Positions 13,458-19,236 are shown, counted from the first letter of the stretch. The stretch: 64,000 nt of DNA from Candidatus Gastranaerophilaceae bacterium (GCA_045638025.1 JAZUAO010000006.1:3281-67280), one strand, 5' to 3'. The notes: generated by a model from the sequence alone, not told the origin. Made by a program: numbers and translations.

Positions 13458-14738
13458 TTAATTTTTAATCATATAAGATATTGCATTTTTTAAAGAATTG
13501 AATTTATCGCCGATATCACAAACACGTTCTGAGAAATTTCTTGACACAATTTCAAGATTTTCTGCTTTGAAAACAACAAGTTGTTTTTGTTCACGACCAA
13601 TAACTTTATTTATATCAGGCGCTAACCAAGCCATTATTCCGCCACTTTTTACACCTTTTGGAATATATGCAGCATCATAACCAGCTTTAGTAAATATTTT
13701 GTTCAGCATACATTCGACAATTGCATTTCGTTCACCATCTGGAATATTTTTAAAATCTTTCAAGTCTATTCTTTCTGATAAGAAATTATTCATTTTAGCG
13801 TACAAATCTTTATAAGTAGCCTCGTCTAAGTATGCAACTTTTGCACCTTTTTGCATTTTTACAGGAATAATATCACCGAACAATCCAGAGAAATATGAGG
13901 CAACTTTAGAATCAGGTGTTATATAAACTCCAGCACCTAATTCACGTGCATATTGGGCACTTTGACGACTTTTAAACGGAGTAAAGCCTTCTTTATAAAT
14001 ACCTCTGGTTTTCTTTGTTCCATGATAAAATATGCCATCTGCAGGTAATACATCCGATGGACATTCCTCAATATATCTGTTTATTTTAGATCGTTGTGCC
14101 ACATCAAACTTATAAAATTTTGAACGACCTGCATAATCAAACCCAAGATTTTGTCTTATCGTGTCTATAAGCTTTTCATTTTCTGAGGCAAATTGTTCAC
14201 CTAGTTTAAAATCATCAACTAGTTCTCCACCTTGCATTCTTTTTTCAACATCAGTAATATGTTGCTCATACTTACCTTTAAATTCTTTTACAGCTTTTAC
14301 AAGCTCAGAATCTTCTGGAATGTTATTTTTGCGGATATAATCGTCCAAGCTTGCAAGATCTTCGTGGAATTTCGTTTTATGTTTTGGCTTTTTGAATATA
14401 CCTAAAAGATCATCCAGTGAGGTTTTACCAGGTTTATTGAGTAAATCATCCGCCATTTTATTACCTCTAATGTAAACATCATCCATAATTTGAGATGAAC
14501 CTTTTAAAACTTTTGCAGCTTTTGCAGGATTACGTCCAATCATACAAGCTAAAGCTACCGCTGCCGTTGCTAAAGTTGATAAAGCTACAGCAATTCCAAC
14601 CTTTTTCTTTTTAGCTTTTTTATTTGATAATTCAACAGAATCTGGTTGTTGTTCTGGGAGCTTTTGCAACTTTTGAGAGGTGAACACTGGAGCATTGCAA
14701 CTTATTTTATTACTTGAAACGTTATCTATCGTAGACAT
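13458..14738 (-). CDS. membrane-anchored hypothetical protein with C-terminal PARP/ADP-ribosyltransferase-like motifs (tentative)
   Basis: Start moved to ATG 14738 (GGGGGA RBS). N-terminus is MSTIDNVSSNKISCNAPVFTSQ. A Lys-rich stretch plus one TM follows (KKAKKKKVGIAVALSTLATAAVALACMIG). The C-terminal domain has the ordered blocks IFYHGT, GAGVYITPD and KQLVVF. Confidence 0.5.
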   Translation of the reverse strand: MSTIDNVSSNKISCNAPVFTSQKLQKLPEQQPDSVELSNKKAKKKKVGIAVALSTLATAAVALACMIGRNPAKAAKVLKGSSQIMDDVYIRGNKMADDLLNKPGKTSLDDLLGIFKKPKHKTKFHEDLASLDDYIRKNNIPEDSELVKAVKEFKGKYEQHITDVEKRMQGGELVDDFKLGEQFASENEKLIDTIRQNLGFDYAGRSKFYKFDVAQRSKINRYIEECPSDVLPADGIFYHGTKKTRGIYKEGFTPFKSRQSAQYARELGAGVYITPDSKVASYFSGLFGDIIPVKMQKGAKVAYLDEATYKDLYAKMNNFLSERIDLKDFKNIPDGERNAIVECMLNKIFTKAGYDAAYIPKGVKSGGIMAWLAPDINKVIGREQKQLVVFKAENLEIVSRNFSERVCDIGDKFNSLKNAISYMIKN

Positions 14739-14765
14739 AATATCCCCCAATTATTCCCATATTTC

Positions 14766-14796
14766 TATAAAAACATTTTTAATTAAAAAATTGCCA
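14766..14796 (-). promoter_or_regulatory. non-canonical bipartite promoter-like element (a)
   Basis: In gene orientation: TGGCAA-N19-TTTATA, then 27 nt to the ATG at 14738. It contains the 14-mer ATTAAAAAATTGCC (14782-14795) that recurs at 15771-15784. Confidence 0.35.
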
Positions 14797-14818
14797 TTTT
14801 ATTAAGATATTTTTAAAC

Positions 14819-17110: not shown

Positions 17111-17137
17111 GCAAAATATTTTTTATTTGTTTTTAAA
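17109..17137 (+). promoter_or_regulatory. non-canonical bipartite promoter-like element (h), divergent partner of (d)
   Basis: TAGCAA (17109-17114)-N17-TTTAAA (17132-17137), only 6 nt before the ATG at 17144. No RBS is visible, so the mRNA may be leaderless. Confidence 0.3.
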
Positions 17138-17143
17138 ATAACT

Positions 17144-17734
17144 ATGCTCAATAATATTGCCTTTACTTCAACCATAAGACCAGTAACAATACATCAATAC
17201 CAATACGAGGTTTCACATTTTGAGAATCCTAAGTTTGTTGGTTTCCCATGGACTTTAGACGAGGCAAAAAGTGGCAAAAACATTTACACAACAAACGTAA
17301 TAGATTGCACTGTTTGCGGCATTAAAGTTAAAGATAAAGTATTTTTATTACACACAAGTCCATTGCAAATAGCTAACAAAAACTTTCAAAAAATTGAAGA
17401 AGTAATTGAAGAAAATGTTGATTTAAAAGCGGACGATATTCAAGCTATATTAATCGGAGGCAAACCGCCTTATACCCATGGACCAGATAGCTACAACCAA
17501 TTTGAGAATTATGAAAAATTTCTTCAAAAACACAATATCCCGTACACAAAACTAAAAGGTGGTATGGGCTCAAAACATGTAGCTTACTCTAGCAAAAAAG
17601 ACGAATGGCTAATTGCTAATAGCTCAATGGCAACAATGCAAGAAAGAACACGGACGACACCAATGAACGAATTAAAAAAAGTTTTCAATGAAGTTTCAAT
17701 TTGTTCAAAAGACAAGGTAAGTTGGTACGCTTAA
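17144..17734 (+). CDS. hypothetical protein with CheD-like deamidase pattern (tentative)
   Basis: Start moved to ATG 17144 (MLNNIAFTSTIRP). The ordered blocks are NVIDCTVCGIKVKDKVFLLHTSP (C...H..P), LKADDIQAILIGGKP (..A.i.GG) and LKGGMGSKHVAYSSKKDEWLI. These parallel the CheD family pattern GSC...H..LP, AK.FGGA, TGG..R.v.y as I remember it. Confidence 0.4.
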   Translation: MLNNIAFTSTIRPVTIHQYQYEVSHFENPKFVGFPWTLDEAKSGKNIYTTNVIDCTVCGIKVKDKVFLLHTSPLQIANKNFQKIEEVIEENVDLKADDIQAILIGGKPPYTHGPDSYNQFENYEKFLQKHNIPYTKLKGGMGSKHVAYSSKKDEWLIANSSMATMQERTRTTPMNELKKVFNEVSICSKDKVSWYA

Positions 17735-19236
17735 TTAACTGTTTTTATATAGCTTGCTAAATCATTTGCCAATTCAACCATTTTGCTTTCTTTATGTGAA
17801 GGGAAAATAATTATATGTGACTTGTGTTCACCTTCATCCTCAAAATTTGAGAGTTGATATTTCGTGTAAATGTATTCTGATGGCTGATCAATTACAAAAA
17901 TATTTGAGTTTTCTTCTCTTGCAAACTTAATATTATGTTCATTCAAAATTCTTTCAAATATTTTTACGTTTCTACTGTATTCTTCTGGCATTTTTCTATC
18001 TAAAGTTTCATTTATTCTTTGCAATGAAGAAAATGGATTGAAAGTTCTAGAACCAGCGGTTGTGCTATCATATTGACCAATATAATCAACTTTAGGTGCA
18101 TTTGGAGGTTCTTTTGTAATTACAACACTTTTAACATCATGGTTACCAAAGTATTTATGCAAACTTACAGAAACCGAATCTATACCTAATTTTGCAATAT
18201 CAATACCTTTAGGTGCATTCTTTTGGTTATGAGCAATACCACCAAATAAAGCCGCATCAACGTGAATATAATGTGGAATTTTTTCTGCTTTTAATCTTTT
18301 GGAAATAAATTCAATATCATCAACAGCACCTGTTTTAGTAGTTCCAGCTGTTAAAAGCACAATAGCAGGTTCGTGATTTGTTTTCCAATTTTCTCTTATT
18401 TGAGAAAGCAAAACATCCGTATCAATTTTTTCAGACCCTTTTCTTGGTTGAATTTCTGAATGTTTAATCAATGTAATATCATTTTTACTTTGATCAAAAC
18501 CTATTTTTACAGATTTACCAACACTATAATGAGCAGCAGCTGAATAATAAACTCTGCCATCTGGGAACTTTCTCAAACCATTGTGAATACCCCATTTATT
18601 ACTTTCTGAACCTCCAGTTGTAATATAGCCCCAAGGTTTGCTAGCCTTATCTAAACCAAAATGTTCAAATAATTTATCCAACAAAGCTTTTTCATATTCT
18701 TTGCTATCCAATAAATAATTTCCTGCATCATAAGGATCGCCACAATTATTCATCAAAGGTAGCTCTGTTTCCATTTTTCTAAGATGTTTTGTCATCGCAG
18801 AATCAACAGTCATATTAGCAGGATAACCAAACATATTTTCTCTCAATCCATTATTTTTGGCTAAAAATTCTTCTGCTTTATCTAATGTTACATCATCTTC
18901 AAGTACAAATCTTCTTACGTCCCCACCAGAAAAGCCATCTTTACGCAATTTGTCATAATCTATCAATCTACCCAACTGCAGACGTTTTTCTTCAAGCCTA
19001 TGCATTTCTAATTCAACTCGCTTCAACTCGCTTTGCAACATCCAAACATCTTCACTAGACAAACCTCTAGATGAATTTACAATTTTATCAACTGTAGTAT
19101 CAAATAAAGAATCTATTACTTCATTTGCTTTTGAACGATTTCTATCAACATGTGATGTAAAACTAATCGTTTTATCAAAATAACGACCTTGCATTTTATT
19201 ATACATATTATTAGAATTTGGGGTTAATGTAATCAT
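17731..19236 (-). CDS. PLP-dependent group II decarboxylase (histidine/tyrosine decarboxylase-like) with N-terminal extension
   Basis: 501 aa with GYITTGGSESNKWG, HVDAALFGG and the PLP-lysine block SVSLHKYFG. The ~110-aa N-terminal extension contains a coiled-coil (LQSELKRVELEMHRLEEKRLQL) and ISFTS at residues 24-28. Confidence 0.8.
   Translation of the reverse strand: MITLTPNSNNMYNKMQGRYFDKTISFTSHVDRNRSKANEVIDSLFDTTVDKIVNSSRGLSSEDVWMLQSELKRVELEMHRLEEKRLQLGRLIDYDKLRKDGFSGGDVRRFVLEDDVTLDKAEEFLAKNNGLRENMFGYPANMTVDSAMTKHLRKMETELPLMNNCGDPYDAGNYLLDSKEYEKALLDKLFEHFGLDKASKPWGYITTGGSESNKWGIHNGLRKFPDGRVYYSAAAHYSVGKSVKIGFDQSKNDITLIKHSEIQPRKGSEKIDTDVLLSQIRENWKTNHEPAIVLLTAGTTKTGAVDDIEFISKRLKAEKIPHYIHVDAALFGGIAHNQKNAPKGIDIAKLGIDSVSVSLHKYFGNHDVKSVVITKEPPNAPKVDYIGQYDSTTAGSRTFNPFSSLQRINETLDRKMPEEYSRNVKIFERILNEHNIKFAREENSNIFVIDQPSEYIYTKYQLSNFEDEGEHKSHIIIFPSHKESKMVELANDLASYIKTVN

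Follow-up and report, generated by a model that had tools for sequence, protein, structure and literature searches.

An N-terminal F-x-G module on unrelated protein families looks like a sorting motif not previously described in Melainabacteria

Introduction

Early rod- and hook-type substrates of the flagellar type III export apparatus carry an N-terminal hydrophobic signal together with a gate-recognition motif, FxxxPhi (Phi being a hydrophobic residue), which docks on FlhB-C, and at least ~19-24 residues are needed between the two (PMC8983047). Here we describe a short N-terminal module, centred on the residues F-x-G, that recurs on unrelated proteins encoded in a 64,000-nucleotide stretch from a Candidatus Gastranaerophilaceae bacterium (GCA_045638025.1 JAZUAO010000006.1:3281-67280), hereafter the window, and in related loci, and that looks like an N-terminal sorting motif not previously described in Melainabacteria. 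We found no description of the motif in the literature on Melainabacteria and Gastranaerophilales.

Four described systems invite comparison. Flagellar early substrates (Bryant et al. 2022, PMC8983047) resemble the carriers of the module in having a two-part, unchaperoned, disordered N-terminus, with small aliphatic residues at the terminus, a polar spacer and a Phe-centred motif, but Gly at +2 (counted from the Phe) is a defining residue only in the module, and the carriers are enzymes and orphans, not axial proteins. In injectisome effectors, too, the N-termini are polar, rich in Ser, Thr and Asn and poor in acidic residues, and position 3 or 4 is aliphatic; the catalytic domains that they precede are unrelated and include glycogen-metabolism-type enzymes, and a single N-terminal motif may mark the whole repertoire. 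The SPI-2 effectors of Salmonella share the N-terminal motif WEK(I/M)xxFF. Classical type III signals are nevertheless without a strict consensus, whereas the module has a near-invariant F-x-G. A precedent for the acquisition of such signals by enzymes exists in Chlamydia, whose metabolic enzymes have gained N-terminal type III signals (PMC4829429, PMC9251005). The double-glycine leaders of C39-peptidase ABC exporters are comparable in their variable leader, in a conserved motif at the junction with the mature part and in ending on Gly, but they differ in register and in the residues themselves; the module lacks their amphipathic helix pattern and has no linked C39-peptidase exporter, and its cargo consists of proteins of 150-935 amino acids (aa), not of peptides. 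TonB-box and TolB-box epitopes, finally, are found in the disordered N-terminal translocation domains of colicin-like bacteriocins. There, as here, a short linear motif (D-T-phi-x-V in the box, D-T-V-S-F in the module) stands in a Gly/Ser/Asn-rich disordered N-terminus before diverse enzymatic domains, and by analogy with the TonB box it is plausible that the module binds by beta-strand addition; however, we saw neither a receptor-binding domain nor a gene for immunity or lysis, and many carriers are implausible as toxins.

Gastranaerophilales are uncultured, host-associated, non-photosynthetic relatives of cyanobacteria. Approximately 75% of their genomes retain only a flagellar subset (flhB, fliI, flgG), for which a secretion role has been postulated (bioRxiv 10.64898/2026.04.24.720558); the same flagellar-subset pattern was reported by Soo et al. 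2014 (PMC4040986), and the basal bodies that Buchnera retains without flagella provide a precedent (PMC8109811). Our analyses show that the module is translated, under strong purifying selection at the protein level, carried by ~20 unrelated families, and confined to the Melainabacterial lineage.

Methods

The material comprised the ~64-kb window (GC content ~32%) and ~700 kb of related loci, designated by L numbers (related proteins by P numbers), rather than a complete proteome. Open reading frames (ORFs) in most of the related loci were taken from a simple caller, and some loci had independent gene calls. The anatomy of the module was described from 35 instances in ~20 families, collected by hand. 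In the window, 51 ORFs were scanned for the pattern that the instances actually show, [ILVAPQD][VTAS]F[TKS][SGP], and the first 60 residues were compared with the rest.

A position-specific scoring matrix (PSSM) of seven columns, from -4 to +2 around the Phe, was trained on decarboxylase and CheR-like orthologues only, and scanned over all other ORFs of the fetched loci, with the first 70 residues of each ORF as the N-terminal zone. Clostridia and Bacilli loci served as controls; within the first 70 residues, 7% of their proteins reach a score of 6, 1.2% reach 8 and 0.25% reach 10. A matrix made from decarboxylase orthologues alone proved too narrow, giving ~3-fold enrichment that was not significant, and the two-family matrix was used instead. 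A metagenome scan with a single CheR-like sequence returned no match; the CheR-like alignment, when used as the query, did find homologues.

Results

A preliminary description of the window had drawn attention to nine similar strings near protein N-termini, eight in complete genes and one in a truncated ORF, and all nine occur at the residues given for them. Five are found in a gene island at 13458-19236. On the minus strand, PVFTS (14676-14690) lies in the N-terminal tail (14676..14738) of an ADP-ribosyltransferase (ART)-like protein (13458-14738), DVFTS (15551-15565) closes the N-terminal 59 residues (15551..15727) of a 302-aa 'GNAT-like' orphan (14819-15727), QTFTG (17028-17042) belongs to the module MRISYNTQTFTG (17028..17063) of a 420-aa 'PAD-like' orphan (15801-17063), and ISFTS (19153-19167) follows MITLTPN... 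and a linker in the module (19153..19236) of a pyridoxal phosphate (PLP)-dependent decarboxylase (17731-19236); on the plus strand, IAFTS (17156-17170) ends the module MLNNIAFTS (17144..17170) of a 196-aa 'CheD-like' orphan (17144-17734). Three more lie elsewhere on the plus strand: LSFKP (33348-33362) at the N-terminus, MTQSGIQNSLSFKP (33321..33362), of a 529-aa protein (33321-34910); VSFSG (35003-35017) in a CheR-like methyltransferase (34913-35917) whose module (34913..35017) reads MQITK..., polar linker, DTVSFSG; and ISFKS (46672-46686) in the module MQSVSNISFKS (46654..46686) of a 935-aa GlgA-like glycosyltransferase (46654-49461). The truncated ORF (1-230, minus strand) runs off the window start; its N-terminus (192..230) translates as MNISKQDSINFQA, in which DSINFQA was scored.

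Seven of the eight genes have a Shine-Dalgarno-like sequence ahead of a start codon upstream of the motif, among them the 529-aa protein (GTG start, AGGAG upstream), from which we conclude that the extensions are translated; before the start of the CheD-like gene no Shine-Dalgarno sequence was seen. The hydrophobic segments that had been placed after the motif in three proteins are also present, at residues 49-67 of the ART-like protein, where the tail runs ...APVFTS, PDSVELSNKK, hydrophobic segment, at 64-82 of the GlgA-like protein, where the segment is moderately hydrophobic, and from residue 218 of the 529-aa protein.

The proposed concentration of the motif at N-termini is borne out. In the window the observed pattern gives 10 matches in 3,060 residues (the first 60 of each ORF) against one in 16,556 elsewhere, and the stricter expression originally written for it gives six against none. 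That expression misfits its own examples, position -1 being occupied by S, A, N, V or T, and the motif is defined by Gly at +2 as well as by the Phe. Across the Melainabacterial loci, PSSM scores of at least 10 occur 12 times in 30,380 N-terminal residues and eight times in 103,828 others (4.8-fold; Fisher p=3.5e-4), and scores of at least 11 occur eight times and twice, respectively. Some of these matches are mutually orthologous, and ~10 independent families are left. The Clostridia and Bacilli control loci have no N-terminal excess (1 versus 6 at a score of at least 10, 0 versus 4 at 11 or above), and the sole control protein scoring 10 or more is encoded on L038, a contig without classification that likewise encodes proteins with the module. 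Further carriers occur in loci with independent gene calls (for example, L077 1652-1837, L078 14935-15696 and L078 17590-18693), where roughly 5% of genes bear the module.

Among window proteins not used in training, five score at least 8: the GlgA-like protein (12.2), the truncated ORF (10.6), the CheD-like protein (10.5), a hook-like protein described below (10.3) and the PAD-like protein (8.4). Scores for the 529-aa protein (6.7), the ART-like protein (6.6) and the GNAT-like protein (3.1, background level) are not significant, so that three of the eight instances first listed are weak and the others are supported.

The consensus over all instances is [V/I/P]-[S/A/N]-F-[K/T/S/N]-G, often with Asp at -4, and it forms the last of three parts: Met-x-(Ile/Val/Leu); a variable, acid-poor linker of ~0-40 residues rich in Asn, Gln, Ser and Thr; and the F-x-G motif, often just before the folded domain. 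Over the 35 instances, Asn, Gln, Ser and Thr make up 47% of the region before the motif, compared to 22% in background N-termini, and acidic residues 2.8%, compared to 10-13%. Position 3 is Ile, Val or Leu in 26 of the 35, against 35 of 152 background proteins, and an aliphatic residue stands at position 3 or 4 in 31. The Phe lies 4-44 residues from the start, and at position 12 or earlier in 13 of the 35 instances. Some proteins have two copies (MQVSFSQ...SPVSFCG; MITLTPSFTG...IAFTS). One protein (L054 2149-4221) with a textbook N-terminal module, MQVNSISQ...NGVAFTG, has an internal copy as well, KNVSFSG (score 17.1), at residue ~394 in a polar linker that follows a hydrophobic segment.

Four families keep the motif among their orthologues. 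The ~35 closest homologues of the decarboxylase (45-100% identity, 490-553 aa) all begin M[IL]T[ILV]TP... and continue through a variable polar linker to phi-S-F-x-G/S, F26 being at least 90% conserved, whereas the whole extension is absent from Clostridia and Bacilli homologues (450-470 aa). In the CheR-like family (35 sequences, 31-69% identity) F33 never varies, G35 is kept in at least 90%, and both match the catalytic residues in conservation; all four GGN codons are used for the Gly and the flanking codons vary, which indicates that conservation acts at the protein level. Distant CheR-like homologues (24-47% identity, on metagenome contigs of 29-49% GC) still have phi-x-F-x-G just before the domain. 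A homologue of the PAD-like protein (L078 17590-18693; 27-42% identity) starts MNIPNTSNLNFKGYDARR where the window protein reads ...QTFTGYDATR, so that F and G are both kept; in longer form the two starts read ...SNLNFKGYDARR and ...NTQTFTGYDATR, respectively. CheD-like orthologues in L001 and L007 read NNISFTS.

For the three weak instances the comparisons are as follows. PVFTS is absent from the nearest homologue of the ART-like protein (P0196), and about half of the ART-like family members with a membrane segment have phi-x-F-[KNTG]-G in the tail before that segment. A 92%-identical orthologue of the 529-aa protein reads LVFKP. The ~60-residue N-terminal region of the GNAT-like protein resembles, by eye rather than by alignment, the N-terminus of P0242, a protein with an ART-type C-terminal part and the string DVFVS. 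The ART-like family (13458-14738; P0175-P0243) also has a strongly conserved D-[SK]-V-E-[IL]-S-x-K-K before an Ala-rich hydrophobic segment, with IGRNPAKAAKVLKG right after it, and this D-x-V-x-L-S may represent the D-x-V-S-F-x-G motif in a form with Leu.

AlphaFold2 models built with family alignments place the module outside the predicted fold, as a disordered extension would be: the predicted local distance difference test score is below 50 for residues 1-33 of the CheR-like protein and 1-34 of the decarboxylase, and the first structured element starts 3-6 residues past the motif. That a Phe stays invariant where the tail is predicted to be disordered suggests recognition by another molecule. 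It is very improbable, and we disfavour the view, that the instances have no common function and reflect chance or composition in an AT-rich genome, or structural reasons particular to each family. The pattern was admittedly drawn up post hoc, three of the eight instances fall short of significance, and the motif stands directly against the fold in the CheR-like and PAD-like families; but a matrix from two families finds N-terminal enrichment in other families, and only in Melainabacteria, the invariant Phe falls in a region that AlphaFold2 leaves disordered, and the same three-part architecture is repeated from family to family.

If the module is recognised, it might be as a cytoplasmic docking motif that brings different enzymes together on one hub (a scaffold, a chaperone, a membrane complex or a regulatory partner, for instance), with no export involved; this would be the reverse of CheR and CheB binding to a receptor pentapeptide. 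Such a role would suit an invariant short motif in disorder on unrelated enzymes, carriers that use cytoplasmic cofactors, the alternating V-x-F (which suits beta-strand addition), and the internal copy after a hydrophobic segment in L054 2149-4221. We consider it possible but lean against it, because no candidate hub was identified and because docking leaves unexplained the strict N-terminal position, the acid-poor polar leader and aliphatic position 3, as well as the mostly accessory or orphan nature of carriers in variable islands.

The position of the motif, usually at the junction of the disordered tail and the first structured element, also recalls leaders whose conserved motif adjoins a cleavage site, and small residues flank the Phe. 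A dedicated protease might thus cut the leader at the F-x-G junction, or expose the Phe as an N-degron, in control of activation or turnover. This seems improbable, however, given that no protease is linked to the carriers, that the leader is only 4-8 residues long in several of them, and that a long stretch separates the motif from the domain downstream of it in the ART-like and GlgA-like proteins.

Identity with the Sec, Tat, lipobox, prepilin and double-glycine signals was rejected on sequence. The first 45 residues of every carrier are free of a hydrophobic segment, as would not be the case with a Sec or lipoprotein signal, and true Sec signals in the window (27445, 36394, 54612) are normal. 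The tails are without the twin arginine and h-region of a Tat signal. Compared with class III (type IV) prepilins, position -1 is mostly Ser, Ala or Asn, and there is no Glu at +5 and no hydrophobic helix; genuine pilins of the lineage, which read RGFTLAEVLITLGIIGVV (window 50854), have the prepilin features. Pilin-like genes with the N-terminus (K/R)GFTLAEVLITLGIIGVV are many (window 50854-51933; L041, L051, L070, L071, L076, L077), and a PilC/GspF-type gene is present at window 42366-43592. Against the double-glycine pattern, leader position -2 (motif +1) is K, T, S or N, the leader is polar and not amphipathic, and the window's only C39-type exporter scores as HlyB-type.

That exporter belongs to a complete type I secretion set (1581-12176) directly beside the motif-bearing island, which consists of a protein of 1935 aa with RTX-like repeats of GNDxI type (1581-7388), a HlyD-like protein (7513-8556), the HlyB-type ABC exporter (8568-10709, above the NCBIfam cut-off) and a possible outer-membrane component (10722-12176). 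A second ABC exporter (31301-33142) stands beside motif-bearing genes and was set aside as a candidate receptor, since it scores as MsbA-like and is probably housekeeping. Beside it, in an operon-like row with a 111-aa ORF, lie genes for peptidoglycan hydrolases without a Sec signal (30060-30893; also L041 4064-4906 and L041 5077-5973), whose catalytic domains differ (CHAP versus VanY/M15) and whose N-terminal regions of ~110 residues, rich in Phe, Ser and Pro, are common to them (...PTFSSIPSSIFSFGTPRYDVFNSNILGYTPPTNFSY...). The presence of these two exporters, the second close to both motif-bearing genes and signal-less hydrolases, together with a Gly that is often the last motif residue and with GG in some orthologues (SFTGG, SFSGG), might suggest that the leader directs export by some non-type-III route, such as an ABC exporter that handles a diverged leader of the double-glycine type. 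We think this quite improbable: Gly is rare at -2, the pattern of hydrophobic residues at -4, -7 and -12 with an acidic residue at -8 is absent, the known substrates of double-glycine-type leaders are small peptides, and of the transporters one is a HlyB-type component of type I secretion next to an RTX-like protein and the other MsbA-like.

The fold labels first given to the carriers stand in part. Pfam supports the decarboxylase (NCBIfam matches a histidine-decarboxylase-like family, below cut-off), Pfam CheR and Foldseek (CheR1 5xly_A, E 2.4e-10) support the CheR-like methyltransferase, and GT5 and GT1 domains support the GlgA-like protein; the ART label has only a sub-threshold match (Pfam ART-PolyVal, E 0.0025), and the 'PAD-like', 'CheD-like' and 'GNAT-like' proteins have no Pfam, NCBIfam or PDB sequence match. 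The PAD-like protein ends in GGIHCT, which we take to resemble the catalytic-Cys motif of guanidino-modifying enzymes. For many carriers in the related loci, Pfam recognises no domain.

The variable islands in which carriers cluster also contain ART, GNAT, PAD-like and orphan genes, as at window 13458-19236 and at 14-18.7 kb of L078, where a sugar transferase, an orphan, a GNAT protein, an ADP-ribosyl exotoxin-type protein and the PAD-like homologue occur together. The window island is only partly kept in the closest genomes (L001 and L007), with a stub of the GNAT-like gene remaining. This stub (L001 13089-13175; 29 codons, MVGIERVLSSYADDVAKYLRNYNKFKILI and a stop) shares 72% identity with the 14819-15727 protein over the latter's first 25 residues and, as a remnant, testifies to gene turnover in the island. 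Outside the island, the 529-aa and CheR-like genes form a conserved gene pair. The 80 bp between the divergent PAD-like and CheD-like genes (17064-17143) contain an imperfect inverted repeat (AAAAATATTTTTGCTAGCAAAATATTTTT) whose arms are ~14 bp long and whose centre is GCTAGC. It may be an operator; the repeat yields spurious TTG-started ORF extensions on both strands.

The window contains a reduced flagellar cluster on the plus strand (37056-39709), made up of a FliJ-like gene (37056-37571) and a FliK-like gene (37561-38877), both recognised by Pfam/NCBIfam, and a short gene (38870-39709; 279 aa) for a hook or rod protein of FlgE/F/G type (FlgEFG subfamily, 117 bits, cut-off 70); FlgD is missing between them, and ClpC follows directly. 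The hook-like protein carries KQVNFKT at residue 41, where it scores 10.3, and this is the site expected for a gate-recognition motif. The FliK-like protein begins MDINTK...NKSDVSFLDEI. When further flagellar substrates were sought in the fetched loci, only flagellins in L047 were found in addition to the hook-like protein. Distant from these genes, 24367-25077 encodes an SLT lytic transglycosylase without a signal peptide, whose N-terminus resembles the rod-binding motif of FlgJ (E. coli FlgJ, MFVQMMLKSM) and which may be a FlgJ-like rod cap fused to SLT; this gene adjoins the CheR-like gene in L054 and L055.

Discussion

Retention of the motif among orthologues down to ~25-30% identity, the lack of an extension in non-Melainabacterial decarboxylase homologues, enrichment in Melainabacteria only, predicted disorder and the failure of each known signal compared here to match together uphold the earlier proposal of a lineage-specific N-terminal tag. 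The tag was, in addition, said to mark a family of modifying enzymes; it does occur on unrelated, mostly lineage-specific proteins, but the restriction to enzymes is too narrow, as many carriers are small orphans in which no domain is recognised.

Being disordered and yet invariant, the module is presumably read by another protein, and would act intermolecularly as a recognition signal. Our preferred explanation, advanced tentatively and at somewhat less than even confidence, is that it serves as a Sec-independent sorting or export leader for accessory proteins, the cargo of which would include toxin-like and protein-modifying enzymes together with many orphans. The most plausible route would be the partial, flagellar-type type III export apparatus that these bacteria retain, although both the route and the receptor are speculative. 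This reading is supported by the composition of the N-termini, by the aliphatic residue at position 3, by carriers that look like effectors and by the match in the hook-like protein. Small hydrophobic residues are found at the extreme N-terminus, as in flagellar early substrates. Injectisome-type compositional rules also hold (aliphatic residue or Pro at positions 3-4, few acidic residues, abundant Ser and other polar residues), but these rules are permissive and constitute weak evidence. Within the decarboxylase and CheR-like families, moreover, the spacing that early substrates need is present, the Phe being never closer than ~19-21 residues to the start.

Several observations weigh against export by this route, or against a leader of this kind. 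Across the carriers as a whole the spacing of at least ~19-24 residues is lacking, the Phe being only 4-12 residues from the N-terminus in many. The motif is not the canonical flagellar gate-recognition motif, an identity that we rejected because a hydrophobic residue at +4, as FxxxPhi demands, is found in 29 of 33 CheR-like sequences but in only 10 of 21 decarboxylase sequences and no more than 9 of 26 other families. Conversely, the gate-recognition motifs of E. coli FlgB-G score no higher than 5 on our matrix, with 3.0 for the window FliK. The cofactors needed by several carriers (S-adenosylmethionine, PLP, nucleoside-diphosphate sugar or nicotinamide adenine dinucleotide) are cytoplasmic, and export of these proteins would be sensible only with delivery into another cell; we know of no injectisome, needle or translocon in Melainabacteria. 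CheR-like homologues on contigs of 46-49% GC also keep the motif. The 35 instances were assembled by hand.

A stronger form of the export leader, which we regard as doubtful, is that F-x-G marks a large repertoire exported through a reduced, non-motility flagellar type III apparatus to the gut environment, the host or neighbouring cells. That repertoire would include enzymes of ADP-ribosyltransferase, acetyltransferase, deiminase, methyltransferase and glycosyltransferase type, and may amount to on the order of 5% of proteins.

If the export leader is real, the module would be one of the rare secretion or targeting signals whose consensus is nearly invariant although the proteins that bear it are unrelated, and it would offer a testable reason why most Gastranaerophilales, though lacking a flagellum, keep some of the flagellar export machinery. 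In the stronger form it would represent an effector system, in a relative of the cyanobacteria, with a sequence-defined secretion signal. A tag defined by sequence would allow sorted or exported proteins to be listed from genomes alone, and even if it serves for cytoplasmic docking, it marks out a protein network that had gone unnoticed in this lineage.

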